This document shows positions 10,529 to 28,721 of a DNA stretch of 64,000 nucleotides, piece by piece. The stretch is from contig CP010426.1 in the NCBI GenBank assembly GCA_000830315.1, positions 135,156-199,155 of the forward strand, read 5' to 3'. The DNA is from an archaeon GW2011_AR20. Its GTDB lineage: Archaea; Nanobdellota; Nanobdellia; SCGC-AAA011-G17; GW2011-AR20. Each line of letters starts with the position of its first letter. Within the stretch, counting starts at the first letter, position 1. A program made the translations under genes and the position numbers. The notes under the pieces are model-generated. The model saw nothing but the letters and a program-made list of their open reading frames with translations. It searched no databases and had not been told where the DNA came from.

Positions 10529-10630
10529 AAGTGTGGGAGACACACTCAGAAACCCGATTCAATCGCACCGTAACAATATATATTAACGCCATATATTTGC
10601 ATAGTAATATGTAAAAATATTTAAAACTTG
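10529..10630. repeat. Direct repeat A (about 100 bp, about 85% identical to 11651..11750), begins with hairpin GTGTGGGAGACACAC
   Basis: gtgtgggagacacactcagaaacccgattcaatcgcaccgtaac... aligned by eye with copy B. Confidence 0.8.
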
Positions 10631-11602
10631 CTGTCATATTTTATTGTCCACAAAATAGAAACATTTATATATAATGTGGACAATAGTGTTAGTATGGTGT
10701 ATGTCGATAAAATCAAGTCAGGGAAAAAAACTTTTTACTATCTTGGAAAAACTATAAGAATAGGAGAAAATAAGTGGAAGAAAATAAGGATTAAATTAGG
10801 AGAAAAAAAGCCAACAAGAGAAGAAATAGGAGATAAACTAAAAAAGCTTAAGTTAGAGGAATATAAAGTTTACAATGAAGATTATTTAGATGCTGATAAA
10901 CTGGAGGTAATTGATGACTTCAGAGAGGTATACAATAATCATCTTAAACAAATACCTAAAACAATCGCTGAGAAAGAAGAAGCTGATTTTTTAATTAGAT
11001 TTACTTATAATTCTAATGCTATTGAAGGAAATAGATTAACGTTACGTGATACTTATTTAATAATTAAAGAAAAACAAATCCCTTCTGGAGCTCCACCAAA
11101 AGACTATAATGAAGCTATTAATGGGCGAGAAGCGTTTGAATTTATTAAAAAATATAAAGGAAAACTTACGATTGAGTTTATTGAAAGATTAAATGAGATA
11201 TTAACTAAAAATACCGGAGTAATTTATACTGGAAGAGTACGCTTTTTTCCAGTTAAAATTGAGGGGGCCGAACATATACCGCCAGAACCAGAAGAAGTTA
11301 AACCATTATTAAGAAAGATGATTAGATTTTATAATGAGAATAAGAAAAAGATTCATCCATTTATATTAGCTTGTTTGATACACGCACGATTTGTGGAGAT
11401 TCATCCATTTGAAGATGGAAACGGCAGAACTGGAAGAGCATTAATGAATTGGATTTTAATGCAAACAAAATATCCAAAAATTTTTGTTCCAGTAAAACTA
11501 AGACAAAAGTATTATGAAGCTATTGATCTTCACAACCAAAAGAACATTAAGAGTTATTGCCAAAAAATGTTTGAAATTGTGATAGAACAATTTAAATTAT
11601 AA
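10628..11602 (+). CDS. Fic/DOC family protein (AMPylation/phosphocholination-type)
   Basis: 324 aa; canonical Fic motif 'HPFEDGNGRTGRALMNWIL' (HPFx[DE]GNGR). Confidence 0.85.
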   Translation: MLSYFIVHKIETFIYNVDNSVSMVYVDKIKSGKKTFYYLGKTIRIGENKWKKIRIKLGEKKPTREEIGDKLKKLKLEEYKVYNEDYLDADKLEVIDDFREVYNNHLKQIPKTIAEKEEADFLIRFTYNSNAIEGNRLTLRDTYLIIKEKQIPSGAPPKDYNEAINGREAFEFIKKYKGKLTIEFIERLNEILTKNTGVIYTGRVRFFPVKIEGAEHIPPEPEEVKPLLRKMIRFYNENKKKIHPFILACLIHARFVEIHPFEDGNGRTGRALMNWILMQTKYPKIFVPVKLRQKYYEAIDLHNQKNIKSYCQKMFEIVIEQFKL

Positions 11603-11650
11603 TATCACCAATATTTTTCAGACTATTTTACAATACATTGATGTTAAGAA

Positions 11651-11750
11651 GGAATGTGGGAGACACACTTAGAATCCTGATTTGATTGCACCGTAACGAT
11701 ATATCTTTTTAACGATGTATATTTGTATAGTATGGTAATATATAAAACTT
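11651..11750. repeat. Direct repeat B (copy of 10529..10630)
   Basis: atgtgggagacacacttagaatcctgatttgattgcaccgtaacgatatat... Confidence 0.8.
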
Positions 11751-11782
11751 GTTATTATTAAAATAATATTTAAGAATAAAGA

Positions 11783-11914
11783 TTAATGAATCCTAGAAAT
11801 TATTGCTCCAACTATTGCTCCTACGATTGTGCCAGCTATCGCTCCTTCTATTCCATTACTAAACAATCCTATAATAGCACCAATTAGCGCCCCTATCTTA
11901 ATTAAGTCTGGCAT
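11783..11914 (-). CDS. Small glycine-zipper membrane peptide (43 aa)
   Basis: Hand translation: MPDLIKIGALIGAIIGLFSNGIEGAIAGTIVGAIVGAIISRIH*; repeated GxxxG/AxxxG; below the ORF-track size cut-off. Confidence 0.35.
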   Translation of the reverse strand: MPDLIKIGALIGAIIGLFSNGIEGAIAGTIVGAIVGAIISRIH

Positions 11915-12110
11915 TTTTCTCCAATTTTTTAATCCTCATTTCTATGTAGATTATATATAAAAGTATAATTGTTATAGCTACGGCTATTTTTATATAATAA
12001 TTATCGTTAAAAATAAGTTTAGTAATGGATGCAACAGCAAGGATTGGACCCAAAACCCATCCAAGTTTTTTCATAAAACCAACAAAACTTTCTTCTTTCT
12101 TTTTAATCAT
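11898..12110 (-). CDS. Small membrane protein, hypothetical
   Basis: 70 aa, 2 predicted TM helices. Confidence 0.3.
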   Translation of the reverse strand: MIKKKEESFVGFMKKLGWVLGPILAVASITKLIFNDNYYIKIAVAITIILLYIIYIEMRIKKLEKNARLN

Positions 12111-12111
12111 T

Positions 12112-12270
12112 TTAATGTTTTACTCCAACCCATATAAGAAAGATACCAAATAATCCTAAAATAAATTTATAGCTAAAACCAAGATTTAATACCCATGGAG
12201 CAATAATTATTATAACCCCTAATAGAACAGACATTGCCGCTCCACTTATTGTGTTTGTATTGCTAACCAT
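12112..12270 (-). CDS. Small membrane protein (52 aa), SPW-repeat-like
   Basis: Hand translation: MVSNTNTISGAAMSVLLGVIIIIAPWVLNLGFSYKFILGLFGIFLIWVGVKH*. Confidence 0.3.
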   Translation of the reverse strand: MVSNTNTISGAAMSVLLGVIIIIAPWVLNLGFSYKFILGLFGIFLIWVGVKH

Positions 12271-12305
12271 TATTGTTAATGAGATTTTATAATTTAAAAA
12301 TCTTT

Positions 12306-12518
12306 TTAATATTCACTTCTATGAAGTTTTGAGTGTTTTCTTACTGCTTTTTTGAATCTCTTTTTAAGTTTTTTATTAATTCTTTTAAGCATAACTTGTC
12401 TTTTTTTAGTTTCTTTTTTATATTCCTTTGCTAATTCTTTTAATTCTTCTAAAATCTTTTCTTTTTCATTTTCATCTCTTTTCATAATCTCGGAAAAGAG
12501 TTTTTGAGTTTTATCCAT
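12306..12518 (-). CDS. Lys/Glu-rich coiled-coil protein, hypothetical
   Basis: 70 aa, about 40% K/R/E. Confidence 0.3.
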   Translation of the reverse strand: MDKTQKLFSEIMKRDENEKEKILEELKELAKEYKKETKKRQVMLKRINKKLKKRFKKAVRKHSKLHRSEY

Positions 12519-12650
12519 TTTATTCGCCTCACTTTAATACAAGATCTTTAGATATATAAATATAATCTTATTATTTTAATCCAGCTAATAACATGCTTAA
12601 ATCTCCACCGTTCACAGACAAATTAGAGATCGTAGACCAAACTAATGTAG

Positions 12651-13094
12651 CTAACCATAAACATAAAGTAATATTAAATATAAAACCATAAATGCTAATG
12701 GTATGTAAGCCTCTGTAATTGTTGTTTTATAATTTTTGTTAATATGGTAATCCTCTATAGTATAAGGTCTTATTGGCAAATATTCTTCTATATTATGTAT
12801 AACCCTAAATTTAGCAGAATTTAATTTTCTATAACTCCTAATGTTTAGATACCAAGAAACAGATATAATAATTCCAACTAAGGATAATAAAATTAATATC
12901 CTGTCTCTATTCATAACTGAAAAATAACTTACCAAACCAAATATAATGGAGTTTATTGTTAAATAAAAATTATTTGATATCAATCTTCTAGAGCTAACAT
13001 CATCTGCACTCTTTACATATATCTTATATTGCTCCAATAAATGATTTTGAAAATCCTTTTTATACTTTTTATTTATCAAATTTTTTGCTTCCAT
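12651..13094 (-). CDS. Small 3-TM membrane protein (candidate effector), last gene of the three-gene operon
   Basis: 147 aa; about 50-aa soluble N-terminus, two adjacent TM helices (INSIIFGLVSYFSVM / ILILLSLVGIIISVSWYL), about 55-aa loop, C-terminal TM; 2 nt downstream of the TIR-like gene. Confidence 0.4.
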   Translation of the reverse strand: MEAKNLINKKYKKDFQNHLLEQYKIYVKSADDVSSRRLISNNFYLTINSIIFGLVSYFSVMNRDRILILLSLVGIIISVSWYLNIRSYRKLNSAKFRVIHNIEEYLPIRPYTIEDYHINKNYKTTITEAYIPLAFMVLYLILLYVYG

Positions 13095-13096
13095 AT

Positions 13097-13591
13097 TTAA
13101 TCACTATTTAGCTCATTTGAGATTTCATCTATATCCCAATTAATAATTCTGGCTCCATTATCTCTCATTTGTTGAGGAATTCTATGATTCTCATATCTAT
13201 GAACCCTTACACCAATTACTTTTTTTTCTTGCGAATAAGCTTCATTTATCTCCCAGTTAACAGCGTCTCTACTATGTGTTTCAGGTCCTATTAAAACTAT
13301 TACTGTAGACGTCATAGCAATCCTTTCTCTGCATTGGGTCCTCCATTTTTCATCAAATGGCTCATTTACTGCATAATTAATAAAATCTAAATCATATTTA
13401 TCACTTTTTGCTTGGTGGGTCAATAGCTGTTTTGCATATTCATCATCTATATGAAAGCTAATAAATACTTTTTTTCTAGTTTTCTGAATTTCTCCATCCC
13501 CATTATAACTTGAAACTTTTTTATTTATTGCATTTTTAGTTGTTTGACTATAGCTCTGACGGGTTCCTCTTGGACCTCCTCCCATAAACAT
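13097..13591 (-). CDS. TIR-like domain protein (DUF1863 / ThsB-like flavour)
   Basis: 164 aa; 'KKVFISFHIDDEYAKQLL' = TIR box-1-like (VFISY/H), later 'AVNWEINEAYSQ' W-x-x-E motif; low-complexity N-terminus overlaps the upstream gene, so the true start may be later. Confidence 0.5.
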   Translation of the reverse strand: MFMGGGPRGTRQSYSQTTKNAINKKVSSYNGDGEIQKTRKKVFISFHIDDEYAKQLLTHQAKSDKYDLDFINYAVNEPFDEKWRTQCRERIAMTSTVIVLIGPETHSRDAVNWEINEAYSQEKKVIGVRVHRYENHRIPQQMRDNGARIINWDIDEISNELNSD

Positions 13592-14403
13592 ACACCTCCT
13601 TCAAATAATTTTTTCTGTTCATTTAATCTTTGTATGTTGTTAAATATTTCAATGAGATTTTCTTTAACAATTTTAGTGTTGTATTTCCCGGAGTATTTTA
13701 CTTTCTTTGTCCCAACAAATTTTTTTCCATTTAATGCGGTGACAAGATGTGTATTTGTAATGTATGCATCGGCAAATGAAAATTCTAATAAATTATTTTG
13801 CGAACCCATTCCATAAAGAAGCAAATATCTCGCATACGGTCTTATTTTAAATGCAAAATTTTTAGCTTTGTTGATCATATTTCTATCTCCAGATCTAAAA
13901 AAATCCCGGGTATGAAAAATAAAATCTTTTATTCCAAACATTTTCAATATTTTTACATGCTTCTCTATTATCCATTCATTGCATCCCTTAACGTGACCAA
14001 TTGGAAAACTAAATGGACATCGCTCTATTAATTCCTTAGTTTGGAACAACGATTTTTTAATTTCTTCGATAGATACGATTTGCTCTCCCTCATAAGTTTC
14101 ACAATCTGGCGTTGTATAAAAATTTGGTTTTAAGGTATTTATAATGAAAGCATAATCTGAGGGGGTCAGTTTAGAAAGCATATCATCTTTTACAATCAAC
14201 GATAGAATTATCATTCCATGATAGTTTAAATAATTGTGAATCCCACCAACATTCCTGATCTCATAAAAAACACTCTTGAGTTCTAAAGTTATATGCGAAA
14301 TTATATCTAACAATCTCACTACTACAAACTTTGTTGGTATGCTTTGAGCAACACCAATCATTTTCTTTTTGTTTACCTCTGTAATGGGTATAATTTCTAC
14401 CAT
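13525..14403 (-). CDS. Hypothetical 292-aa protein; weak resemblance to the C-terminal half of the tRNA-guanine transglycosylase (TGT/DpdA-like) TIM barrel
   Basis: 'RYLLLYGMGSQNNLLEFSFADAYITNTHLVTALNGKKFVG' vs TGT 'HLMGVGKPDDI...IDMFDCVMPTRSGRNGQAFT' (by-eye alignment only; no DSGGFQ or Zn motif seen). Confidence 0.3.
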   Translation of the reverse strand: MVEIIPITEVNKKKMIGVAQSIPTKFVVVRLLDIISHITLELKSVFYEIRNVGGIHNYLNYHGMIILSLIVKDDMLSKLTPSDYAFIINTLKPNFYTTPDCETYEGEQIVSIEEIKKSLFQTKELIERCPFSFPIGHVKGCNEWIIEKHVKILKMFGIKDFIFHTRDFFRSGDRNMINKAKNFAFKIRPYARYLLLYGMGSQNNLLEFSFADAYITNTHLVTALNGKKFVGTKKVKYSGKYNTKIVKENLIEIFNNIQRLNEQKKLFEGGVCLWEEVQEEPVRAIVKQLKMQ

Positions 14404-14570
14404 TTTTAATAGCTCTATCCTCTTGACCTCTTTTTTGCATGGTATTAGAGGGTTGAACTTATTTATATAGTTTTCTATTGACTTCTTTACGTAATAATAT
14501 AAGATTTAGACTAAAATAGAAATATTTATATAACTTATTATGCTTCTTTTTTGAAGAAGGAATCAATTAA

Positions 14571-15155
14571 ATGAAAGTATTAATATCTACAATTTGGAAA
14601 GGGTCTGCTGTTATACAGGCTATAAAACTATTTTCTCCTAATAAAGTCTTTTTTATTGCAGATGAACCTGTTGAAGATATAAGAAATAATTCTATTAATA
14701 TGATCAAAGAAATATTCCCTAATTTAGAATATAAAACTGTTCCAACTAAGATTTATGATATAGTAGGAATTGCAAAGTCTGTAATGGATATCATAGAATC
14801 AGAAACAGGAAATGAGATAATAGTTCATATTTCAGAAGGTAGAAAAACTATGAGTTTAGGTTTATTATTTGGTGCTTATGTTAAAAGAGAATTAGTTAGT
14901 TCTGCATATTATATTACTGAAGAAACAAATACACCAATTCAATTACCTCTCGTAAAACTTAAATTATCAAAACAAAAAAAAGGATTATTACAAAAAATTG
15001 ATGAGAACATTACCTCAATATCTGAACTTGCAAAGAAACTAAAGATCAAAGCTCCAACCGTATATGTTCATATGAAAGAATTAAGAGATGACGGCTTTTT
15101 GAATAAGGAAAATAAGCTCACAGAGATTGGGAGGATTATTCTTTTAAATAATTAA
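14571..15155 (+). CDS. Csa3-like regulator (Rossmann/CARF-like N-domain + C-terminal wHTH)
   Basis: 194 aa; N-terminus 'MKVLISTIWKGSAVIQAIKL' resembles the Csa3 start (MKxxxxTLGF); C-terminal 'ISELAKKLKIKAPTVYVHMKELRDDGFL' wHTH. Confidence 0.4.
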   Translation: MKVLISTIWKGSAVIQAIKLFSPNKVFFIADEPVEDIRNNSINMIKEIFPNLEYKTVPTKIYDIVGIAKSVMDIIESETGNEIIVHISEGRKTMSLGLLFGAYVKRELVSSAYYITEETNTPIQLPLVKLKLSKQKKGLLQKIDENITSISELAKKLKIKAPTVYVHMKELRDDGFLNKENKLTEIGRIILLNN

Positions 15156-15156
15156 A

Positions 15157-17630: not shown

Positions 17631-17634
17631 TAAA

Positions 17635-19122
17635 ATGGTCGAAAAGATTACACTTTCAGAGTTAGAATCATACTTATGGGCTGCAGCAAATATACTTAGG
17701 GGTCCAATAGATAATGCAGACTTTAAAGCATATATATTTCCAATGTTATTTTTTAAAAGAATATCTGATGTTTATGATGAAGAATATCAATCTGCTCTAA
17801 AAAAATTTGATGGTGATGAAGAAGCAGCATCTTATCCTGAAAACTTTTCTTTTATTATTTCAGATAACGCTCATTGGAAAGATGTTAGAGCAAATACTAA
17901 AAATGTCGGTCAAGCAATTCAATATGCTTTTAGAACTATAGAAACTGCAAACCCGGACAGATTATATGGTATTTTTGGTGATGTAAATTGGACAAACAAA
18001 GAAAGATTGTCTGACGAGTTATTGATTAATTTGATTGAAAATTTCTCTACAAAGAATCTTTCAAAGGAAAATGTTGAACCAGATATATTGGGACAAGCCT
18101 ATGAATATCTTATTAAGAAATTTGCTGACCTCACTAATAAAACCGCCGGAGAGTTCTATACTCCTAGAGCGGTAGTTCATTTAATGGGTAATATTCTAAA
18201 ACCCAAAGAAAAAGACACAATCTATGACCCTGCTTGTGGTTCTGGTGGCATGCTTTTAGAAGCATTCAACTTTGTAAAAAATAAAGGGGGTGACGTTAGA
18301 ACACTTAAACTATATGGTCAAGAAAAGAATTTAACAACTTCTGCTATTGCCAGAATAAACTTGTTTTTACATGGGGTTGAAGACTTTCAAATAATTAGAG
18401 GAGATACACTAAGAAATCCAGCTTTCCATGAAGGGGATTTATTGTCTAAATTTGATGTTGTAATTGCTAATCCACCATTCTCATTAAAAAATTGGGGTGC
18501 CGTTGAATGGTCTCATGATCAGTTTAGTAGAAATATTGCTGGAACTCCCACAGACAATAGTGGTGACTTTGCTTGGGTCCAACATATGGTTTGTTCTATG
18601 GCACATCCAAATGGAAGAATGGGAATAGTTTTGCCACATGGTGCTTTATTTAGAGGGGGGGTTGAAGGCAAAATAAGAAAAGAACTTTTAACAAAAGATT
18701 TACTTGAAACAGTTATTGGTCTTGGACCAAATCTTTTCTATGGAACAGGAATTAGTGCCTGTATATTAATATTCAAACAAAAGAAAGATGCTAAAAAGCA
18801 AAATAAGATTCAGTTTATTGATGGTTCTGCATTATTTACTAAAGGGAGAAATCAAAATTTCTTTCGGGAAGAACATGCAAAACAAATTCTTGAATGGTAC
18901 AATAAATATGAAGATATAGAAAATATAAGTAAAATTGTTTCACTATCAGAAATAGAAGAGAATGAATTTAATTTAAATATTTCAAGGTATGTTGTAAAAC
19001 TGGATGAAGAAGATAAAATAACATTAAAGGAAGCATATACTGAAATGCTCAATACTCAAAAAGATTTTGAAAAATCGCAAGAAAAAATGATTAAAACCTT
19101 AACAAAATACAAGGTAATATGA
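17635..19122 (+). CDS. hsdM: Type I R-M N6-adenine DNA methyltransferase subunit (HsdM), copy 1
   Basis: 495 aa; 'DPACGSGGMLLEA' motif I, 'VIANPPFS' motif IV, HsdM N-terminal domain 'YLWAAANILRG'. Confidence 0.9.
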   Translation: MVEKITLSELESYLWAAANILRGPIDNADFKAYIFPMLFFKRISDVYDEEYQSALKKFDGDEEAASYPENFSFIISDNAHWKDVRANTKNVGQAIQYAFRTIETANPDRLYGIFGDVNWTNKERLSDELLINLIENFSTKNLSKENVEPDILGQAYEYLIKKFADLTNKTAGEFYTPRAVVHLMGNILKPKEKDTIYDPACGSGGMLLEAFNFVKNKGGDVRTLKLYGQEKNLTTSAIARINLFLHGVEDFQIIRGDTLRNPAFHEGDLLSKFDVVIANPPFSLKNWGAVEWSHDQFSRNIAGTPTDNSGDFAWVQHMVCSMAHPNGRMGIVLPHGALFRGGVEGKIRKELLTKDLLETVIGLGPNLFYGTGISACILIFKQKKDAKKQNKIQFIDGSALFTKGRNQNFFREEHAKQILEWYNKYEDIENISKIVSLSEIEENEFNLNISRYVVKLDEEDKITLKEAYTEMLNTQKDFEKSQEKMIKTLTKYKVI

Positions 19123-19123
19123 A

Positions 19124-20617
19124 ATGACAAAAACAATATCAGCCCAAGAACTAGAATCATATCTTTGGCAAGCTGCGAATATACTTAGAGGAGTAATTGA
19201 TGCAAGCGAATACAAAAGTATAATTTTTCCATTGATGTTTTTTAAGAGAATTTCTGATGCATATGATGAAGAGTATGAAATAGCTCTTGCTGAATCTAAA
19301 GGAGACAAAGAATATGCTTCATATCCAGAACAACACGAATTTCAAGTTCCTAAAGGATACCATTGGAATGATGTAAGACAAATTACAAAAGAAGTTGGAA
19401 GAGCTATTAAAAATGCAATGGAGAATCTAGAGAAAGCTAATCCAGATAAGTTAATGGGTATTTTTGGAGATAACAATTGGACAAATAAGGAAAGACTTTC
19501 TGACTCAATATTAATTAATTTGATTGAACACTTTTCGAGTTTAAATCTCTCTACTAAAAATGTGCCTCAAGATGAATTTGGAACTGCTTATGAATTTTTA
19601 ATAAAGAAATTTGCAGATGATAGTGGACACACTGCTGCTGAATTTTACACCAATAGGACTGTAGTCAGAATAATGGCACTAATTATGAATCCAAAACCGG
19701 GAGAATCTATTTACGACCCAACTTGCGGTTCTGGAGGTATGTTGCTTAATTCCGCATTGCTTGTTAAGGAAAAGGGTCAAGAGTATCGTGGCTTAAAATT
19801 ATATGGGCAAGAAATTAATCTAATAACTTCAGGTATTGCGAGAATGAACATGTTCATACATGGATTTAATGAATTTCATATTGTTAGAGGAGACACATTA
19901 AAACATCCCGCCTTTGTGGAGAATGACAAACTAAAGAAGTTTAATATTGTTATAGCTAATCCCCCATATTCAATCAGCAAATGGAATAAAGAGCTATGGA
20001 AACACGACCCTTGGGGGAGAAATAAATATGGTGTTCCTCCTGCAGGTAATGCCGATTATGCTTTTTTTCAACATTGTATATGTTCTATGGATGAAAAAAA
20101 TGGGAGATGTGGAATATTATATCCTAACGGAATACTTGAAAGAGATGCAGAAAAATCTATGCGACAAAAGATAGTTGAAGATGATTTGATTGAGTGTATT
20201 GTTGGCTTGGGAAAAGATTTATTTTATAATTCATCAATGGAATCATGCTTAGTATTCTGTAAAACTAATAAAGAAAAGAGTAAAAAAGGAAAAATATTAT
20301 TTATTGATGCTAAAGCAGAGATTACAAGAAAACAAACACAGAGTTTTTTAGAACCACATCATATTAAGAAGATACATGATGCTTACAAAGGTTTTGAAGA
20401 CATTAAAGGTTTTGCAAAAGTTGTTGACTTGGATGAAGTAAGAAAGAATGACTTTAATCTTAATCTAAGACTATATGTTGAAGAAAAAAGATATGTTGAT
20501 AATTCATTATTGGAAACTCCACTAAAGACTTACATTAAGGAATGGAAGGATAGTATAAAAGAACTTGAAAAATCAACAAAAGAAATGAACGAAGCTATTA
20601 AGGAGGTATTGAAATGA
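19124..20617 (+). CDS. hsdM: Type I R-M methyltransferase subunit (HsdM), copy 2 (tandem paralog, about 55% identical by eye)
   Basis: 497 aa; 'DPTCGSGGMLLNS', 'VIANPPYS', 'YLWQAANILRG'. Confidence 0.9.
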   Translation: MTKTISAQELESYLWQAANILRGVIDASEYKSIIFPLMFFKRISDAYDEEYEIALAESKGDKEYASYPEQHEFQVPKGYHWNDVRQITKEVGRAIKNAMENLEKANPDKLMGIFGDNNWTNKERLSDSILINLIEHFSSLNLSTKNVPQDEFGTAYEFLIKKFADDSGHTAAEFYTNRTVVRIMALIMNPKPGESIYDPTCGSGGMLLNSALLVKEKGQEYRGLKLYGQEINLITSGIARMNMFIHGFNEFHIVRGDTLKHPAFVENDKLKKFNIVIANPPYSISKWNKELWKHDPWGRNKYGVPPAGNADYAFFQHCICSMDEKNGRCGILYPNGILERDAEKSMRQKIVEDDLIECIVGLGKDLFYNSSMESCLVFCKTNKEKSKKGKILFIDAKAEITRKQTQSFLEPHHIKKIHDAYKGFEDIKGFAKVVDLDEVRKNDFNLNLRLYVEEKRYVDNSLLETPLKTYIKEWKDSIKELEKSTKEMNEAIKEVLK

Positions 20618-21762
20618 AAATTCCTAATAGCTGGAAAAAAGTTCAGTTTGGAGATGTCGTAAGTAAAATAAACGATAAAGTTTCAAACAGAGAAGAATGG
20701 ATTTTTAATAGATATATTGGTGGAGAACATTTTGATGAAGGCGAAATTAGAGTTACAAAATCAGCGCCTATTGAAGGAAATGAAGAAGTTATTGGTTCAG
20801 CATTTCACATGAGATTTAAGCCAGGACAAGTTCTTTATGTTACAAGAAATCCAAGATTACGTAAAGGTGGAATGGTAAATTTTGAAGGAGTTTGTTCTAA
20901 TGTCAGCTTTGTTATGGAAGCGAATGAAACAAAATTATTACAATCATTATTACCTTTTGTAATTCAAACAGAAGATTTTGTAAAACATACTTGCAACAAT
21001 GCACATGGTTCAACAAATCCATTCCTTAATTGGAAAGATATAGCAAATTACGAGTTTTTACTTCCGCCTTTAGTTGAACAGAAGAAGATTAATGAAGTGT
21101 TATGGGGTGTTGAGAACAGCATAATTAAATTAGAAATATATCTTCAAAAATTAAGAAGTTTTCAAGATAAAATAATAACTAATTTGTTAAAACCAAAAAA
21201 AGGCGGTAAATTAACTAAATTTGGAGAAATTATCAAACTTTCAAAGGAGAAGTCTCAAGCACCATATGGGAATTTAAAATATCTAGGATTAGAGCATATT
21301 GATTCAGGTGTAAGTATTTGTAATAAATTTTCAGATGCAAATAATGTTAAAAGCGTTACTTCCGTATTCAAAAAAGGAGACATATTATATGGTAAGCTTA
21401 GACCATATCTTGATAAAGCAGTTATTGCATCGTTCGATGGAATCTGCACAACTGAAATTTTAGTTATTAATGCAAATGATAAAACAACAAATGATTTTCT
21501 AATGTTACATATAAGAACAAAAGACTTCATTGATTATAATACTCGATTAGGATTTGGAACTAAAATGCCTAGAACTTCCGTAGAAATAATTTCTAATTAT
21601 GAAATATATCTTCCTTCAATAAGTGAACAGAAAATTCTTTTGAATACAACCAATAAATTAAATAAGCTGATTGCAGATGTAAATAAAAATAAAGCATCAC
21701 TAAAAAATCTTCGTAATAAACTCTCCAACGAACTTTTAAAAGGCGAGTTGAGGTTAGATTAA
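20614..21762 (+). CDS. hsdS: Type I R-M specificity subunit (HsdS), two target-recognition domains
   Basis: 382 aa; duplicated TRD architecture with conserved central/terminal helices (LPPLVEQKKI / LPSISEQKIL); 4-nt overlaps with flanking genes. Confidence 0.8.
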   Translation: MKIPNSWKKVQFGDVVSKINDKVSNREEWIFNRYIGGEHFDEGEIRVTKSAPIEGNEEVIGSAFHMRFKPGQVLYVTRNPRLRKGGMVNFEGVCSNVSFVMEANETKLLQSLLPFVIQTEDFVKHTCNNAHGSTNPFLNWKDIANYEFLLPPLVEQKKINEVLWGVENSIIKLEIYLQKLRSFQDKIITNLLKPKKGGKLTKFGEIIKLSKEKSQAPYGNLKYLGLEHIDSGVSICNKFSDANNVKSVTSVFKKGDILYGKLRPYLDKAVIASFDGICTTEILVINANDKTTNDFLMLHIRTKDFIDYNTRLGFGTKMPRTSVEIISNYEIYLPSISEQKILLNTTNKLNKLIADVNKNKASLKNLRNKLSNELLKGELRLD

Positions 21763-21763
21763 A

Positions 21764-24664
21764 ATGGTATTTAATGAACAAAACACAGTTGAACATTATG
21801 TAAGAGATTTACTTGTTAAAATGGGTTGGAAATATATTCCAAAAGAGCATTTGCCAAGGCAAGATGCCGATGTTTTAGTCGAAGAGCATTTAAAACAAGC
21901 ATTAATAAAATTGAATCCTGAAATAGCTGAAAAGCCTGAAAGAGCTGAAGAAGTATTATACAAGTTGAGAGCAATTCTTATTTCAGTTAGAGGAACAGGC
22001 ATTGTTAAAACAAATGAAGAGTTTACAAAATGGTTGAGAAATGAAAAAACAATGCCATTTGGAGAAAATAGTGAACATACTACTGTAAGATTAATAGATT
22101 TTGATAATATTGCTAATAATAATTTTGTTGTAACAACACAATATTCATTCACATCAGGTCAGAACATAAGACCAGATTTAGTTTTATTAATAAATGGTAT
22201 TCCATTAATTATAGGGGAGGCTAAAACTCCAGTAAGACCTGCAATATCTTGGGTTGATGGAGCATTGCAATTAGAAGGCTATCAAAATTATACTCCCGCA
22301 TTATTTGTTCCAAATATGTTTTGTTTTGCAACAGAGGGTAAAACTTACAGAGTAGGTTCAATTAAATTACCATTACAAAATTGGCAACCATGGAAGAAAA
22401 CTGACGATACTGCTTTTGAAGATTTAGAGGAATTAAGAAATTCCGTTAGTAGAATGTTAAATCCAGAAGTTATCATAGATATTTTACAAAATTTTACATT
22501 ATATAGCACAACTCAGGGTGGCCAAAAAATAAAAATAATGGTAAGATACCAACAATATGAAGGAGCAAAACAGATTGTTAAAAGAGTTATAGATGGTAAA
22601 ATAAAAAAGGGTTTGATTTGGCAATTCCAAGGCTCGGGAAAGTCTTTTTTAATGGTTTATGCAGCGATGCAATTAAGACAAGAAGAAAAACTCAAAAGTC
22701 CAACAGTTATTGTAGTCGTTGATAGGGTTGATTTAAACTCTCAAATTACTGCCACATTTAATGCATCTAATGTACCAAATATGGTCATTGCTGATTCTAG
22801 AGAAGATTTACAAAAATTCCTAAAACAAGATACTAGAAAAATAATAATCACAACAATTCATAAATTTGCAGAAGCTGAAGGGGTACTAAATGAAAGAAGT
22901 AATATTATTGTGTTAGTTGATGAAGCTCACAGAACACAAGAAGGCAATCTTGGTAACAAAATGCGAGAAGCCTTGCCAAACGCATTTTTATTTGGTCTTA
23001 CAGGTACTCCAATAAATAAAAGAGATAGAAATACTTTTTGGGCATTTGGAGCAATAGAAGATAAAAACGGTTACATGAATCGTTATTCTTTTGAACAGTC
23101 CCTAAGAGATGGGGCAACACTTCCAATCTATTTTGAACCAAGATTAGTAGAATTAAGAATAAATAAAGAACAGATTGACAAAGAATTTGAATGGTTAGTA
23201 AAAGAAGAACAATTAGATTATGGAGAAAAAACCGAACTTTCAAAAGAGGCTGCTAAATTTGGCATTATTGTTAAAACAAAAGATAGAATACAAAAAATTT
23301 GCACAGATATCGCAAAACATTTCAGAGAAGACATTGAACCGAATAATTTCAAAGGGCAAGTTGTTGTATTTGATAGAGAATCTTGTCATTTATACAAACA
23401 AGAGCTTGATAAACATCTACGACCAGAAGAAACAGCAGTTGTAATGACTGTCAAACAAAAGGGAGAGGAGGAATGGAGAAAATTATATGGTTTATCTGAT
23501 GATGATCAAGAAAAATTGTTAGACAGATTTAGAGATCCAAAAGACCCTCTTAAATTATTAATAGTTACTTCAAAACTTCTCACAGGGTTTGATGCACCAA
23601 TCAATCAAGTAATGTATTTGGATAAACCAATGAAAGATCATACTCTATTACAAGCTATTTGTAGGGTTAATCGACCTTATCCAAATAAAAACCACGGGCT
23701 TATTGTAGATTATCTTGGCATATTTGATAATGTTGGCAGAGCTCTTGACTTTGATATGGCTGAAATGAGAAATGTAATATTAAATATTGCAAAACTAAGA
23801 GAAGAATTACCAAAAGCTATGGATAAATGTTTATCTCACTTTAAAAATATTGATAGAAACATTGAAGAATATGAAGGATTACTTGCAGCCCAAGATTGTT
23901 TGCCTTCAAATGAAAAAAGAGATAAATTTGCTGGAGATTATTCATATTTAACAAAACATTGGGAAGCGGTGTCTCCTGATCCAATATTGAAAAAATTTAC
24001 GAAAGATTACAAGTGGCTTACACAAGTATATCAATCCATTCAACCGCCAAGCGGTAATGGGAGATTGATATGGCATGCATTAGGAGCAAAAACTCTTGAA
24101 TTAATCCATAGAAATATTGAAGTTCAGACAATCAGAGATGATCTAGATGTATTGGTAATGGATGCTAATATTTTAGAAAAAATTTCAGAGAGTAAAGCTA
24201 AAGAAAAAGCTAAGGAAATTGAAATGAAAATTGTTTGGCGACTTCATAAGCACGCTAATGATCCAAGATTTCAAGAACTTGGAAAAAGATTAGAAGAATT
24301 AAAAGAAAGACATTATCAAAATGCCATTAGCAGCATTGAATTTCTTAAAGGTTTACTAGAAATTGCAAAAGCAACCGTAAAATTAGAAAGAGAAACAGAA
24401 GCAGAACCTGTTGACGGAACAAAAGAAGCACTTACTCAATTGTTTTTGGAATGTAAAGTCGATAAAACCCCAATAATTTTAGAACAAATAATAAAAGATA
24501 TTGACCAAGTTGTAAAAGTAACTAGATTTGATGGATGGCAATGGACTAAAACAGGAGAAAGAGATATACAACAAGCACTTAGAAGAACCTTACTAAAATA
24601 TAAATTACATAAAGAACAAGATTTATTTGATAAGGCATTCGGGTATATTAGGGAGCATTATTAG
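21764..24664 (+). CDS. hsdR: Type I R-M restriction subunit (HsdR), nuclease + SF2 helicase
   Basis: 966 aa; N-terminal PD-(D/E)xK 'DLVLLINGIPLIIGEAKTP', Walker A 'QGSGKS', 'VLVDEAHRTQ' DEAH box. Confidence 0.9.
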   Translation: MVFNEQNTVEHYVRDLLVKMGWKYIPKEHLPRQDADVLVEEHLKQALIKLNPEIAEKPERAEEVLYKLRAILISVRGTGIVKTNEEFTKWLRNEKTMPFGENSEHTTVRLIDFDNIANNNFVVTTQYSFTSGQNIRPDLVLLINGIPLIIGEAKTPVRPAISWVDGALQLEGYQNYTPALFVPNMFCFATEGKTYRVGSIKLPLQNWQPWKKTDDTAFEDLEELRNSVSRMLNPEVIIDILQNFTLYSTTQGGQKIKIMVRYQQYEGAKQIVKRVIDGKIKKGLIWQFQGSGKSFLMVYAAMQLRQEEKLKSPTVIVVVDRVDLNSQITATFNASNVPNMVIADSREDLQKFLKQDTRKIIITTIHKFAEAEGVLNERSNIIVLVDEAHRTQEGNLGNKMREALPNAFLFGLTGTPINKRDRNTFWAFGAIEDKNGYMNRYSFEQSLRDGATLPIYFEPRLVELRINKEQIDKEFEWLVKEEQLDYGEKTELSKEAAKFGIIVKTKDRIQKICTDIAKHFREDIEPNNFKGQVVVFDRESCHLYKQELDKHLRPEETAVVMTVKQKGEEEWRKLYGLSDDDQEKLLDRFRDPKDPLKLLIVTSKLLTGFDAPINQVMYLDKPMKDHTLLQAICRVNRPYPNKNHGLIVDYLGIFDNVGRALDFDMAEMRNVILNIAKLREELPKAMDKCLSHFKNIDRNIEEYEGLLAAQDCLPSNEKRDKFAGDYSYLTKHWEAVSPDPILKKFTKDYKWLTQVYQSIQPPSGNGRLIWHALGAKTLELIHRNIEVQTIRDDLDVLVMDANILEKISESKAKEKAKEIEMKIVWRLHKHANDPRFQELGKRLEELKERHYQNAISSIEFLKGLLEIAKATVKLERETEAEPVDGTKEALTQLFLECKVDKTPIILEQIIKDIDQVVKVTRFDGWQWTKTGERDIQQALRRTLLKYKLHKEQDLFDKAFGYIREHY

Positions 24665-25346
24665 ATCGGTTTTCTTTATAACTCCAATAACTTTCATCTC
24701 CAATAATAACATGATCCAATACATTTATTCCTAATAATTCTCCTGCCTCAAATATTTTTTTTGTTATCTCTATATCTTTTTGAGAAGGATTAGGATCACC
24801 AGATGGATGATTGTGAACTAAAATAACAGAATTAGCACTTTCTTTAATAGCTTCTTTGAATATTTCCCTTGGATGGATTAGAGAAGAATTCAAAATTCCT
24901 ATTGTAATCCCTTCTTTAAAACTAATAATTTTATTTTTAGTATCTAATAAGATAATACTCAAAACTTCTTTCTTATAATTCCTAAATTTATCTATAAATA
25001 TATTTTTAACATCTTTAGCGGAGTTTATTTTTTTATGTTTAATTTTATTATCATAACCTCCATTAATTAGTTTATTATATCTTTTACTTAGTTCAATTAA
25101 ACTTATTAATTGCAAGGCTTTATTGTAGCTTTTGCATTCTTTAGCTAACTCTTTTATAGATAAATTCTCTAAATTGTTAAAATTATATTTTTTAAGTAAT
25201 TTATTAGATAACTCAAGAGCACTTTCTCCTTTAGAACCAACACCAAAAATTATGGATAATAACTCAGCATCATCTAAAGAATTAACCCCATTTCTTGTTA
25301 ATTTAAAACCAGGGCGATTAAACCATGGAATTTCTTTTATTTTCAT
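24648..25346 (-). CDS. radC: RadC-like JAB/MPN domain protein (DUF2466)
   Basis: 232 aa; JAMM motif 'ILVHNHPSGDPNPSQKD', N-terminal HhH; converges on and overlaps the hsdR end by 17 nt. Confidence 0.8.
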   Translation of the reverse strand: MKIKEIPWFNRPGFKLTRNGVNSLDDAELLSIIFGVGSKGESALELSNKLLKKYNFNNLENLSIKELAKECKSYNKALQLISLIELSKRYNKLINGGYDNKIKHKKINSAKDVKNIFIDKFRNYKKEVLSIILLDTKNKIISFKEGITIGILNSSLIHPREIFKEAIKESANSVILVHNHPSGDPNPSQKDIEITKKIFEAGELLGINVLDHVIIGDESYWSYKENRSNNAP

Positions 25347-25429
25347 TAAAAATAGTAAAATAGAGAAATTAATAAATCTTTCACTATATATCGTAAAACT
25401 ATTTATTCTTAATTTAATTTATATATTAA

Positions 25430-25906
25430 ATGGAAAAAGAATATTACAGGAAAGTTATGATTAGTTTATATAGACCAGTTGTACAAAAGAAATTATACAA
25501 ATATAGAAGATATATAAAAAATAAACTTCCATATACATATGTTCCAATATGTAAAGATAAGTTATATTACAAATATTTCACTGAAGAAGGAATAGCTCGA
25601 TATTTATATGATAATTATGGTTGTGGAACTTATATGATCCAAGGCTGGAAGTGGTACAGTAAATGTAAAAAATGTAAACTTTCTTTTAATAAAAAAGAAT
25701 ATCGTAAGGTTATTGTATGTCCAAGATGTGATTGTAAGGAAAGAACTTGGTTTAAAGGCTTTTATAATTTATGTGTTTATGAGATTATAAAACATGGTGG
25801 AACTTACTTATACAACCCAATAAACATTAGTAATATATCAAAAACCAAAGCCTGGCGGTGGAACATAAATCATTTAGAAAATTTTGACCCCCTTACTAAT
25901 GTATAG
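25430..25906 (+). CDS. Cys-rich zinc-ribbon protein, hypothetical
   Basis: 158 aa; 'CKKCKLSFN...CPRCDCKE' two CxxC pairs. Confidence 0.3.
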   Translation: MEKEYYRKVMISLYRPVVQKKLYKYRRYIKNKLPYTYVPICKDKLYYKYFTEEGIARYLYDNYGCGTYMIQGWKWYSKCKKCKLSFNKKEYRKVIVCPRCDCKERTWFKGFYNLCVYEIIKHGGTYLYNPINISNISKTKAWRWNINHLENFDPLTNV

Positions 25907-26310
25907 TTCTTGTTTTTTGTTCAGTTGTCCAATTTCAATTTTTCAGCACTAGGGGTATAAAAAAATTCTTGTATATACAATGCTTCTATAAAGTGAATAT
26001 TTTCACGCATATACGTGTTCAATGAGAAAACTCAGGGCATCAAAAAAAATATAAATACAGAACTCAAATTATTAACTTTTAAGCCTTATAACATTTAATT
26101 TTAAACTTTTAACTATCTTCATATCTCATAAATCAAAGTTGTTAAGTGTTAAGTTTTTCTAATTTTAATATCAAAAAAACCATAAATCCAAAGTTATTAT
26201 TCTTTAAAGCCTATAAGTTAAAAATAAATTCTAAAAAAAATGTCCAATTCTGTTAAGTCTTTTAATGTATTGAACAAAACTTAACAGCGATATATATTTA
26301 ATTATTTTAA
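25907..26310. other. 400-bp AT-rich non-coding region with imperfect direct repeats
   Basis: Degenerate iterons, e.g. ttaacttttaagccttataa / ttctttaaagcctataagttaaaa and ataaatcaaagttgttaag / ataaatccaaagttattatt; no ORF over 30 aa. Confidence 0.5.
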
Positions 26311-26532
26311 CTATATATTGTTTTGTTCTTCTTTCTTTGGTTGTTCTTCTACTGTTACAAATTCTTTTGACAAAGATTTTATATGATCAAAGATCAATCT
26401 TGATATAGAGATACCATATTTCTTTGCTAGTTCTTTTAGATACATCCATTCTAAGTTATTCATATATATGCTATGTTGCCTCTTTGTTTTATTTATAATT
26501 TCTCCTGCCCCAGTAAATTCATTTGCTATCAT
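26311..26532 (-). CDS. Putative ribbon-helix-helix (CopG/Arc-like) DNA-binding protein
   Basis: 73 aa; beta-strand 'KRQHSIYMNN' then helices 'LEWMYLKELAKKYGISISRLIFDHI'; strong SD-like GGAGGAT 8 nt upstream; preceded by a 27-aa upstream micro-ORF. Confidence 0.4.
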   Translation of the reverse strand: MIANEFTGAGEIINKTKRQHSIYMNNLEWMYLKELAKKYGISISRLIFDHIKSLSKEFVTVEEQPKKEEQNNI

Positions 26533-26702
26533 TTTCTAGATCCTCCTTTGGTTCTTTATTTTCTAATTTCCCAAATAATTTTTCAAACCACATATCTTTT
26601 CTTGTAAGCTTTTGTTTTTCCATAGAATATATATTGAGGATCTTATTTATATAGTTCAATACAAAAAATCATAAATTATAATTTTTATATATAAAGCAAT
26701 AG

Positions 26703-26760
26703 AAAGGTACACTTCGAGAGTGTACCTTGGGTGTGTGCCACACCCCGGGTGTTATTCACA
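26703..26760. promoter_or_regulatory. Cluster of perfect inverted repeats (stem-loops) downstream of int
   Basis: AAGGTACAC-ttcgaga-GTGTACCTT, then GGTGTG-tgc-CACACC and CACCC-c-GGGTG. Confidence 0.5.
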
Positions 26761-26789
26761 ACCCTTTAAACAAAAGCTACAATCCATAT

Positions 26790-26957
26790 TCATATAATGC
26801 CTTTAGATTTTAATTCAAGGTGTTGGGTAAATACACGATCTATCACTTTATCCAACGATATGCTACTTTCACCTTCTTTTATAAAATCCCCTTGAACCTT
26901 ATGAATCTTAGCCTTTGTTTCTATTGTTATTCCTATTGTTCTATATTTTTTCTTCAT
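26790..26957 (-). CDS. Small basic protein (55 aa), possible DNA-binding
   Basis: Hand translation: MKKKYRTIGITIETKAKIHKVQGDFIKEGESSISLDKVIDRVFTQHLELKSKGII*. Confidence 0.25.
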   Translation of the reverse strand: MKKKYRTIGITIETKAKIHKVQGDFIKEGESSISLDKVIDRVFTQHLELKSKGII

Positions 26958-27113
26958 TTTGTTTTAGCTTTCATTAAAAAATGAAAAACTAAACAAAAGA
27001 GCTAAAACAAGTGGTTGTTAGTTTTGGGATTATAATAGTATATCATAAAAATTTAAAAAGCTTTCCCAACCTTAGTAAGGCATTGTTTTTTATATGTAAG
27101 ATAATATTAAAAT

Positions 27114-28328
27114 TTATTTATCAATCTCTTTAATCATTTTTGCTAACAAATCAAGTATCTCTGGTTTCTTTTCAATTAAATTGTTCATCTGCTCATCTAT
27201 CTTTATCCTTTTATTTTCTAAACTTAGAGCAACTCTTAAATTTAATGGCTTGCCACAGTTGTTACAATAATCATTAGTTGGTGCATTAACCGCTTTACAA
27301 ATACATACTACTGATTGCAATTGACTTTCTTTAACCTTTAATTCTTGTTTGCCAAAACCTTTTCTATAACTATTATCTGCTTCCTTCGGATTGAGGAATG
27401 TATAACTTGAAACAGTTTGTCTTTTAGTCCAACCATATCTCATCATTAACAATGAATCACTCATAAAGCTGCTTGAAGATGTTGCACTAAATCTTCTGAA
27501 AGCATGGGGATTAACAGCTTTTTTTAAATTTATTTTTTTAGCTATTTTATGTAACATCATATTTACTGAGCTATGACTGAGCTGTCCATAATGATTTCTT
27601 TTATCTAAACTAATAAACAAATGAGCTTTTGGATCATCTTTAAGTGGATGATGATTTAGCCATGTACTTAAATATGGAACTGAAGGAATTAATAGAACTC
27701 TTCTCCCTCCAGTCTTACCAGTTTCAACCATTAGTTGGATTAAACCATCATCTGTATAAGAAATATTAGATATATGTACGTTAACTAATTCACCTACTCT
27801 AACTCCAGAATCAGCTAAGATAGAAATCATAGCTTTATTTCTGACAGAACTTGTAACATTTAACATAGCTAATATATCTTCTTCTGTTAAAATTTCGCTA
27901 GGAGCTCTTTTCTTAGTTTCTCTTCTTATTGTTATATCCTGGACTTCCTTAGGATATTTTTTGTCATTACCTTTAAGCCATTTGTAGAATAATCTTAATA
28001 TAGCTAGATCTTCTCCTTTGCTATTAGTACTTAAATTAGAATTATTAATCTGTATTACTAAAGTTTCTATATCTTTTTTATTTACCTTATCTAAATCCTT
28101 GTTTAATTTTAAAACCATTAACCTTAGCCTATTAAAGTACTTTAGTATCCTTACATCACTTAAACCTTTAAACTTCTTGTATTCTGTAAATTCAATAATA
28201 AGCTCTTTATTTTTCTTGGAGATTGCTTTATTCTCTGTTAATAATACTAATTCTCTATTTGTTTTAGAATGTACTTTATACAAGATTTCAGCTGCATCTA
28301 TTACTATTTCATTTTCCATAAACTTCAT
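27114..28328 (-). CDS. int: Tyrosine recombinase/integrase (full length, adjacent to tRNA)
   Basis: 404 aa; catalytic region 'RVGELVNVHISNI' (box I Arg), 'HAFRRFSATS' (H-x-x-R), 'MRYGW...Y' ; C-terminal Zn ribbon 'CICK...CNNCGK'. Confidence 0.85.
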   Translation of the reverse strand: MKFMENEIVIDAAEILYKVHSKTNRELVLLTENKAISKKNKELIIEFTEYKKFKGLSDVRILKYFNRLRLMVLKLNKDLDKVNKKDIETLVIQINNSNLSTNSKGEDLAILRLFYKWLKGNDKKYPKEVQDITIRRETKKRAPSEILTEEDILAMLNVTSSVRNKAMISILADSGVRVGELVNVHISNISYTDDGLIQLMVETGKTGGRRVLLIPSVPYLSTWLNHHPLKDDPKAHLFISLDKRNHYGQLSHSSVNMMLHKIAKKINLKKAVNPHAFRRFSATSSSSFMSDSLLMMRYGWTKRQTVSSYTFLNPKEADNSYRKGFGKQELKVKESQLQSVVCICKAVNAPTNDYCNNCGKPLNLRVALSLENKRIKIDEQMNNLIEKKPEILDLLAKMIKEIDK

Positions 28329-28386
28329 TTTAAGCTCCTTATGCTTTTATACTTTAACGATACAACACATTAGAATCAGGTTTAAG

Positions 28387-28512
28387 TGTGGGAGACAGGA
28401 TTCGAACCTGTGAAGGCACTAAGCCAATAGGTTTCCTCCAAAATGACCTAAGCTTGGACTTTATTTCTAAAAATAATAAAGCTATCCCGTTTGGCCACTC
28501 CGGCACTCCCAC
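28387..28512 (-). tRNA. Intron-containing tRNA (126 nt), isotype unresolved
   Basis: Minus-strand: acceptor GTGGGAG/CTCCCAC (7 perfect bp), D-region GCCGGAGTGGCCAAACGGG, T-arm ACAGG-TTCGAAT-CCTGT, discriminator A; about 50 nt AT-rich insert (TTTATTATTTTTAGAAATAAAG...) between the D and T regions. Confidence 0.6.
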
Positions 28513-28713: not shown

Positions 28714-28721
28714 TTTCTATT

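Follow-up and report, generated by a model that had tools for sequence, protein, structure and literature searches.

The sequence analysed here (hereafter the window) is a 64,000-nucleotide (nt) stretch of contig CP010426.1 from the archaeon GW2011_AR20 (positions 135,156 to 199,155 of the forward strand). The subject of this report is the segment between its positions 10532 and 28397, in which a tyrosine integrase gene and a series of defence and toxin-type genes lie next to a tRNA gene; a preliminary description made from the letters alone had read it as a defence island integrated at that tRNA. Its features are listed below in window coordinates, with X and Y denoting the tRNA-proximal and the distal arm that flank the cores of the attachment (att) sites.

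10529..10542 (+): site A, the outermost att copy and left boundary of the island; AAGTGTGGGAGACA, 14/14 identical to 28384-28397
10543..11654 (+): integrase-less Fic cassette (unit 2), 1.1 kb, composed of a degenerate arm copy (10543 to ~10640), the Fic gene (10694-11602) and a tRNA-proximal arm (11603-11654)
11655..11765 (+): site B, the junction of E2 and the Fic cassette; core TGTGGGAGACA (11655-11665) and the E2 distal (Y) arm of ~100 nt
11666-28386: E2 (unit 1), 16.7 kb, with the integrase at its tRNA-proximal end
11783..12518 (-): four small open reading frames (ORFs); 43, 70 and 52 aa, hydrophobic and membrane-like; 70 aa, Lys-rich
12651..14403 (-): three-gene operon for a 292-aa protein, a ThsB-type TIR protein and the membrane protein 8xMP
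14571-15155 (+): Csa3-like CARF-HTH protein
15157-16314 (+): Cas4-like PD-(D/E)XK nuclease, 385 aa
16371-17630 (+): GmrSD_N(DUF262)-HNH nuclease
17635..24664 (+): Type I restriction-modification (R-M) operon; two tandem HsdM, HsdS, HsdR
24648-25346 (-): RadC/JAB protein (Pfam)
25430-25906 (+): Cys-rich 158-aa protein, with a sub-threshold Pfam hit only
26311..26957 (-): ribbon-helix-helix (RHH)-like ORFs downstream of the integrase gene; 73 aa (26311-26532) and 55 aa (26790-26957)
27114..28328 (-): tyrosine integrase, 404 aa, intact (PF00589 at 2.8e-19)
28329..28386 (+): X arm, the tRNA-proximal arm of E2, read from the sequence
28387..28397 (+): tRNA-proximal att core TGTGGGAGACA, covering the discriminator, the 3' acceptor strand and the last 3 nt of the T stem
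28387..28512 (-): intron-containing class II tRNA, most likely tRNA-Leu (Rfam RF00005, ARAGORN -i)

Read in the sense of the tRNA, E2 starts with the core inside the tRNA gene, the X arm, the integrase, the RHH ORFs, RadC, the Type I R-M operon and the DUF262-HNH gene, and continues with the PD-(D/E)XK nuclease, CARF-HTH, the 292-aa/TIR/8xMP operon, the small membrane ORFs and the Y arm. Beyond E2 follow core B, an X arm, Fic, a degenerate Y arm, core A, the native trailer and a block with a Na/Ca exchanger gene. Window 10532-28397 is very probably a composite genomic island that arose when two units integrated in turn, site-specifically, at the 3' end of a tRNA-Leu gene through a classical (lambda/XerA-like) tyrosine integrase. 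The preliminary description had taken two repeats at the left end for att sites of one or two successive integrations; this is refined here to two units, the 16.7-kb integrase-bearing element and the 1.1-kb integrase-less Fic cassette.

Att cores and arms at the island boundaries

The 11-mer TGTGGGAGACA occurs exactly three times in the 64 kb of the window, always on the + strand (10532, 11655 and 28387), against an expected count of 0.00 in 100 shuffles, and the three copies sit exactly on the island boundaries in a single orientation. When the whole tRNA region is searched for exact matches throughout the window, the longest is the 14-mer AAGTGTGGGAGACA at 10529-10542 in repeat A; at the tRNA this match runs over 28384-28397. 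On the outer side of site A, homology with the relative L002, a contig described below, stops at window 10513.

The two direct repeats of about 100 bp that had been proposed around sites A and B are borne out, with 83% identity, ungapped, over their first 59 nt and an alignment that extends over ~110 nt. The further claim that each begins with 12 nt identical to the tRNA 3' end holds for A, where the identity is even longer (14 nt), but not for B, which starts ATGTGGGAGACA and has only 11 nt in common with the tRNA. A degenerate T-arm remnant, also proposed for both repeats, is weakly backed at best: beyond the core, the resemblance of A to the tRNA interior does not reach significance (p ~0.3), that of B is marginal (p ~0.03-0.04), and Rfam finds nothing tRNA-like in either repeat at E <= 1. 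The att-site reading rests on comparative genomics and not on this weak T-arm similarity.

In the X arm lie TAACGATACA (28355-28364) and, at 28373-28386, the half-site GAATCAGGTTTAAG, an inverted counterpart of AATCAGGATTCTAAG in the E2 distal arm; the Y arm at site B carries two TAACGATRYA motifs (11694 and 11710). There are three copies of TAACGATRYA in the window (expected 0.4), all on one strand and only at the ends of E2, two in the Y arm and one in the X arm, which makes them candidate arm-type binding sites. When the attachment site of the circular element (attP) is reconstructed from the two E2 ends, it reads AATCAGGATTCTAAG-TG-TGTCTCCCACA-CTTAAACCTGATT, flanked by three TAACGAT motifs, with imperfect inverted half-sites around the core that may be bound by the integrase. 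Among the loci compared, an nhmmer profile built on the ~110-nt arm matched only A, B and one copy in another genome (L011, below).

The composition of 10.5-28.5 kb relative to the flanks, for which a skew had been anticipated, differs really but slightly: the island has a GC fraction of 0.29 as against 0.31-0.33 in the flanks, being slightly AT-richer, and a tetranucleotide distance of 0.020 as against 0.014 +/- 0.003 (background profile taken from the flanks, sliding windows overlapping). This points weakly to a foreign origin.

The target tRNA

The minus-strand tRNA at 28387-28512 is real, with an RF00005 score of 37.9 bits (E = 7e-7, region searched alone). Default ARAGORN and the Rfam gathering scan of the whole window both miss it; ARAGORN -i finds it. 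Its anticodon region is interrupted by an insert of ~46 nt, its variable arm is long and base-paired, its discriminator is A, and three candidate spliced forms (anticodons UAG, UAA and GAA) all fold as class II cloverleaves. The tRNAs of three related loci (L009, L011 and L013) have a 41-nt 3' half identical to that of the window tRNA and carry the Leu anticodon CAA. The target is thus most likely a tRNA-Leu whose anticodon, depending on how the intron(s) are spliced, would be UAG or UAA. The ARAGORN -i call itself, tRNA-Phe(GAA), was rejected in view of the long base-paired variable arm and the Leu anticodons of the relatives.

In five tRNA-Leu genes (L009, L011, L012, L013 and the window) the 41-nt 3' half (TGGCTTAGTGCC...CTCCCACA) is identical, and the 5' halves, the anticodons (CAA versus UAG/UAA) and the number and length of introns vary. 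Since the 3' half stays the same as the anticodon changes, one att specificity can target several Leu isoacceptor genes.

The integrase and its relatives

The integrase is full length, as the preliminary description had it, and its gene starts exactly 58 nt from the 3' end of the tRNA. Comparison with XerA (5hxy) shows a complete catalytic set: GVRVGE (R), ETGKTGG (K), PHAFRR (H, R), YGW (W) and SSYT (Y). The earlier label of a pNOB8-type system with an intact integrase is right about the gene but not about the subfamily, as box II is PHAFRR, an HxxR signature accompanied by W as in XerA and lambda, and not the R...YxxR...Y of the pNOB8 subfamily. In functional terms the gene is of the classical, or type II, kind, being unsplit and full length at one end of the island with the core outside it; no integrase fragment lies near A or B, so that the split-gene arrangement of SSV-type (suicidal) integrases does not apply. 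It is intact in all same-species contigs examined. The small RHH-like ORFs beside it are candidates for a regulator or directionality factor; small ORFs next to the integrases of related elements show at most weak RHH-type similarity.

Only 23 homologues of the integrase were found, and none in IMG/VR. In several other contexts homologues with 33-66% identity sit 58-73 nt downstream of co-oriented tRNA genes:

L007: 66% identity, downstream of a tRNA-Gly
L005/L006: 46% identity, downstream of a co-oriented tRNA
L024: 45% identity, downstream of a co-oriented tRNA
L025/L026: 33% identity, downstream of a tRNA-Trp with a 68-nt intron, in an element with Alw26I-type R-M

Some of these contexts can be described further. 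In L025 (9787-20754) the integrase lies 73 nt past the tRNA-Trp, and beyond it come an Alw26I-type restriction enzyme, a pair of methyltransferases and another, short integrase-like ORF; no distal att site was located there. L005 (9924-15725) holds a 5.8-kb element delimited by a 14-nt repeat of the tRNA 3' end, TCCGGGCGGTGGCT, which encodes the 46%-identical integrase and a protein with an MTBMA_p00010-type plasmid-protein domain; the tRNA upstream has a D-region insert similar to that of another window tRNA, at ~40393-40484. In L021 (60% identity) the core TGTCTCCCACA occurs at 2997-3007, ~63 nt upstream of the integrase gene, with no tRNA, and MazE-like and DUF559 genes lie on the side of the core opposite the integrase; this core is either an internal junction of an array or an attP.

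Occupied and empty sites in related genomes

A metagenome scan with the 3' half of the tRNA returned five loci, and the same query gave 0 hits in viral contigs. On both sides of the island the window is collinear with L012, a 201-kb contig (73-84% nt identity) that has neither the integrase nor the cargo: there, an MBL-fold hydrolase (metallo-beta-lactamase superfamily), the transcription factor TFB, 107 nt, the tRNA, L37e/LSm/S8e and a giant SLT-domain protein follow one another. L012 1884-2916 is the TFB region (window 8298-9321), 3023-3156 the tRNA and 3387-4904 the counterpart of window 28508-30042, and window 9322-28386 is absent. An empty site of the kind sought in related genomes therefore exists, with TFB, 107 nt and the tRNA in direct succession.

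A second comparison comes from different lineages with different cargo. In L011 the tRNA is followed by three exact cores (2430, 3607 and 4299), which delimit a Fic cassette of 1.17 kb and a two-gene, toxin-antitoxin-like cassette of 0.69 kb, and homology to L009 resumes exactly at the third core; in L009 and L010 the tRNA is directly followed by the far flank of L011, so that they are matched empty sites. In L013 the tRNA core is followed by sequence 97.5% identical over 40 nt to window 11626-11665, immediately left of B, and then by an RHH/RelE-like pair, a second core and a Fic-like gene; therefore the junction of tRNA and left-of-B sequence expected without E2 exists in nature. An unoccupied target thus occurs in related genomes in three forms (L012; L009/L010 versus L011; the L013 junction). 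Together with the homologous integrases beside tRNAs, these loci sustain the view of the repeats as att sites. As to another candidate role, duplicated promoters, this was rejected for the repeats, as B lies between convergent genes and the L011 arm is 3' of Fic.

Several observations weigh against an island made by integration. The segment missing from L012 also takes in the exchanger block (9322-10516), whose TFB side bears no att core, and because of this an extra, different event is needed for the L012 difference. No empty site was found in the same species: identical-protein look-ups with S8e, Fic and the exchanger (~24 contigs examined per look-up, from many samples) returned contigs that all carry the island wherever they reach the locus, and the island may be fixed and no longer mobile. 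(An exact look-up with the LSm protein gave nothing, its start codon probably being different.) The whole-island empty junction TTAAAGAAGTGTGGGAGACAGGATTCGAA had 0 hits in metagenome contigs, the predicted attP junctions had 0 hits in viral contigs, and no excised circle was found. Finally, the identity block is short (11 nt), the arms resemble the tRNA only weakly outside the core, and arm A and the L011 arm carry degenerate forms of the TAACGAT motifs.

Some of these points would also suit an ancestral chromosomal region deleted in the L012 lineage, the integrase being a Xer-type resolvase and the repeats coincidental. The best named matches of the integrase are indeed XerA, XerC and XerD, the island is present in all same-species contigs reaching the locus, and what L012 lacks exceeds the att-bounded island. 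Yet the XerA equivalog model (NF040815) scores 106.5 bits, short of its cut-off of 220; coincidence would have to account for three exact cores at boundaries where 0.00 are expected; other lineages show paired occupied and empty sites at this tRNA 3' half, with different cargo; and homologous integrases adjoin tRNAs for different amino acids. Such a deletion is accordingly extremely improbable, and the segment is taken below as a composite island.

The Fic cassette and its counterparts

The smaller unit of the composite island has the structure of a cis-mobilizable element (CIME): cores at 10532 and 11655 enclose Fic as the sole gene between the att arms, there are no integrase or transfer genes, and the integrase-bearing E2 is adjacent. 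Its part at 11626-11654 is nearly identical to the arm beside the tRNA in L013. The cassette, which is comparable to a bacterial CIME, is most likely a decayed remnant of an earlier, related element. Its protein has only 38% identity to the Fic protein of L011, and the E2 distal arm at site B and the arm of the L011 Fic cassette have 89% nt identity over 113 nt. Another cassette, in L013 (425-1059), consists of 0.6 kb with RHH and RelE-like genes between two cores, and its reconstructed junction contains a near-perfect 16-bp inverted repeat, ACATTGATGTGAAGGA ... TCCTTCTTAACATCAATGT, around the core.

These cassettes could be viewed in a more active light, with the tRNA-Leu 3' end as an integron-like or satellite platform at which integrase-less cassettes (Fic; RHH/RelE-like pairs) dock, and with E2-type XerA-like integrases inserting, excising and exchanging them in trans between lineages, so that they would not be passive deletion remnants. 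Four independent compact cassettes (the window Fic, the L011 Fic, and the toxin-antitoxin-like cassettes of L011 and L013) consist of intact gene(s), short arms and exact cores; the arms are far better kept than the cargo (the 89% nt arm identity against 38% aa for Fic); a Fic cassette and a toxin-antitoxin cassette have proximal arms that are 97.5% identical; and the reconstructed L013 junction, read from the sequence, has the 16-bp inverted repeat around its core. On the other hand, the TAACGAT motifs are intact in E2 and degenerate in arm A and the L011 arm, as decay predicts. The gene orientation varies between the window and L011 cassettes and the docking site is a tRNA 3' end, which leaves the arrangement outside the definition of an integron, and the integron-integrase model gives the integrase only 36 bits against a cut-off of 265. 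Moreover, no free or re-inserted cassette copy was seen, and decay plus accretion of full elements gives the same anatomy (PMC5704250). Active cassette trafficking is therefore allowed but not favoured by the data, and we consider it unlikely; if true, it would amount to an archaeal counterpart, in function, of an integron or satellite system, anchored at a tRNA and spreading toxin and defence genes.

A model for two successive integrations

In the two-integration model, the integrase would pair the attP of the circular element with the tRNA 3' end and exchange strands within the 11-bp block TGTGGGAGACA, which runs from the discriminator through the 3' acceptor strand into the end of the T stem; this would regenerate the tRNA and duplicate the core at the far end of the element. 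Strand exchange is placed inside the 11-mer because the sequence outside it differs between site B and the tRNA site on both sides. In the most economical history, a Fic-bearing element would have integrated before E2 and then decayed (arm A being a degenerate copy of arm B), after which E2 would have used the regenerated tRNA core and displaced the Fic cassette outward. Because three att copies are present, composite excision is possible as well. The model predicts the following junctions, all but the last given for the window + strand:

E2 attP: TTAGAATCAGGTTTAAG-TGTGGGAGACA-CACTTAGAATCCTGATTTG
site after E2 excision: CATTGATGTTAAGAAGGAA-TGTGGGAGACA-GGATTCGAACCTGTG
composite attP: CAGGTTTAAG-TGTGGGAGACA-CACTCAGAAACCCG
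whole-island empty site: CCCTTTAAAGAAG-TGTGGGAGACA-GGATTCGAACC
Fic-only circle: CATTGATGTTAAGAAGGAA-TGTGGGAGACA-CACTCAGAAACCCG

Two events might be reduced to one if a single 17.9-kb element extended from A to the tRNA and site B were an internal duplication of its own end, in keeping with the longer identity of A with the tRNA site (14 nt) and the paralogy of A and B over ~110 nt. However, the 29 nt left of the B core (11626-11654) recur directly after the tRNA core of L013, without E2, B itself contains an exact core, and L011 has the same multi-core array together with an empty site for comparison. A single element is consequently very improbable. As for the two-step history, its component processes (tyrosine-recombinase integration at a tRNA 3' end, tandem accretion and CIME-like decay) are already well known, indeed textbook knowledge.

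Cargo of E2

The cargo of E2 is almost entirely of defence and toxin type. The preliminary list for the island (Type I R-M, DUF262-HNH, Cas4-like, TIR, Fic, RadC and RHH) agrees with Pfam, PADLOC and PHROGs, which back the cargo types. The R-M system is of Type I in the full sense, with HsdM, HsdS and HsdR in one operon: Pfam recognizes N6_Mtase/HsdM_N twice, Methylase_S, and HSDR_N with SWI2_SNF2, and REase_I is matched at 7.8e-136. Its two HsdM genes (17635-20617) are tandem full-length paralogues, with 72-77% nt identity in patches, that precede a single HsdS and HsdR. A gap of 1 nt separates the CARF-HTH gene from that of the Cas4-like nuclease, and there are no CRISPR-Cas genes in the annotated part of the window.

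The TIR protein is ThsB-like but has no ThsA beside it, its neighbours being 8xMP and the 292-aa protein, and the operon thus falls outside the definition of Thoeris. 8xMP belongs to PF24838 and has no PADLOC hit, and a literature search on "8xMP" gave nothing relevant. The three genes may represent an undescribed defence arrangement of TIR plus membrane effector.

Whether E2 could be an integrated provirus or plasmid and not a cryptic defence island depends on this same gene content. Its unannotated ORFs (292 aa, 158 aa and small ORFs) leave some room for such a reading, and one relative of the integrase, in L022, sits with DUF87/HerA-type plasmid-like genes. Against it, Pfam, PHROGs and NCBIfam reveal no replication initiator (Rep), primase, conjugation (VirB4/VirD4-type), capsid, portal or terminase genes, with the 292-aa and 158-aa proteins staying unannotated. 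Among 10 proteins scanned with PHROGs (the Pfam-unannotated ORFs, the integrase, 8xMP and the PD-(D/E)XK nuclease), the only matches were to integrase and exonuclease, a weak one to a repressor and, for the 73-aa RHH-like ORF, a weak one to a tail chaperonin (E = 0.004). In addition, the integrase is without an IMG/VR hit and the 292-aa ORF shares an operon with the TIR and 8xMP genes. E2 thus corresponds to neither a provirus nor an integrated plasmid or integrative and conjugative element (ICE) as these are defined, and an origin of that kind is very improbable.

Relation to known integrated elements

E2, taken as the integrase-bearing unit of a composite island, fits the class of cryptic integrated elements (CIE) described in thaumarchaea by Krupovic et al. 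2019, which have a median size of ~17 kb, att sites of 8-25 bp, tRNA targets and R-M cargo (PMC6563490). Like them, it has a tyrosine integrase as its sole hallmark gene, no recognizable replication or virion module, accessory cargo, and a place in an array at one site (PMC6563490); unlike them, it has a probable DPANN host ('Nanoarchaeota' in GTDB naming), an intron-containing tRNA-Leu as target, cargo almost all of defence or toxin type, and a conserved ~100-nt arm common to integrase-less cassettes of other genomes. Short att sites of 8-13 bp and arrays formed by re-use of one site are documented for archaeal integrated elements (PMC6563490, PMC8371274). Among classical archaeal integrases, the Methanobrevibacter provirus Msmi-Pro1 and SNJ2 systems have att identity blocks of 11 bp and 13 bp (PMC8371274), but these are proviruses with virion genes, of which E2 has none.

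The type II, 'pNOB8-like' archaeal systems (She et al. 2001-2004; PMC8371274) resemble the present one in that the integrase gene stays intact, following the lambda paradigm, the att site extends into the tRNA 3' end, and captured genes stay behind when elements decay (PMC8371274). They differ in the R...YxxR...Y signature of the pNOB8 subfamily (PMC8371274), as opposed to HxxR here, in att sites of 40-50 bp in Sulfolobales elements, as opposed to 11 nt, and in the conjugative plasmid backbone of pNOB8-type elements, which E2 lacks. A structural parallel to the whole island considered here, a tandem at a tRNA 3' end in which an att-flanked unit devoid of integrase and transfer genes adjoins an integrase-bearing element, is seen in the accretion of CIMEs with ICEs or integrative and mobilizable elements in Streptococcus and other bacteria (Pavlovic 2004; Bellanger 2011; PMC5704250). 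In contrast to these, the host is an archaeon and the partner element has no conjugation module, and cis-mobilization is putative here.

The interest of the locus lies in a cleanly delimited integrative defence island of what appears to be a DPANN-type archaeon, with exact boundaries and with empty sites in relatives, in a group whose mobile elements have so far been sparsely described. It shows that these small-genome symbionts acquire, via a tRNA-specific integrase, a package made up of Type I R-M, DUF262-HNH, CARF-nuclease and TIR modules. The 11-bp core at the tRNA-Leu 3' end is re-used in several lineages, and integrase-less Fic and toxin-antitoxin cassettes accumulate at one tRNA-Leu site. 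The value of these results is mainly in annotation, in the cataloguing of DPANN mobile elements and in a defined att/integrase pair as a possible genetic tool.

Dehalococcoides ssrA-specific genomic islands reportedly also have a tandem, direct-repeat arrangement. They differ from the present island in their bacterial host, integrase family and cargo (PMC3146451).

Genomic neighbourhood

Core genes of the window include TFB, L37e, LSm, S8e, Alba and the tRNA-splicing endonuclease; together with a GC content of ~31% and an SLT-domain protein of 2165 aa, these are indicative of a DPANN-type archaeon. The closest match in the genome collection, with 90% aa identity for the Na/Ca exchanger, is a metagenome-assembled genome labelled Nanoarchaeota. 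The core flanks given in the preliminary description are collinear in L012 as regards TFB on one side and L37e/LSm/S8e on the other, but the Na/Ca exchanger, which it had counted among them, is absent from L012 and located elsewhere in L002. The exchanger block is as follows.

9322..10516 (-): Na/Ca exchanger block with a tiny Cys-rich (zinc-ribbon-like) ORF, 1.2 kb, GC 25.7%, the lowest in the region

A scan of genome contigs with the exchanger gave one close relative only, L002, where the block (1430-2656) has SecD on one side and the 3' end of another intron-containing tRNA on the other; this locus does not represent an empty site. In the window, no core copy with <=1 mismatch occurs at the end of the block that faces TFB. 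The block is a separate variable segment outside the integrase-made island, and it is not counted in the island because it is variable and has no att core on the TFB side.

A further difference from L012 lies at window 6926-8276, where a Polbeta/DUF6932 nucleotidyltransferase (203 aa) and ORFs of 139 aa and 107 aa stand in place of only ~220 nt; this is a second small variable islet, which may be a toxin-antitoxin-like module. On the other side of the island, a likely tRNA at ~40393-40484 (-) has the anticodon UGU (Thr) in its anticodon loop and an insertion of ~19 nt in the D-loop region; ARAGORN misses it and Rfam gives a partial hit only (40401-40450, 30.2 bits). Giant SLT-domain proteins are typical of episymbiotic small-genome archaea, and that of the window, a 2165-aa protein with an SLT lytic transglycosylase domain encoded at 30046-36543 (-), is kept in L012 with 2261 aa.

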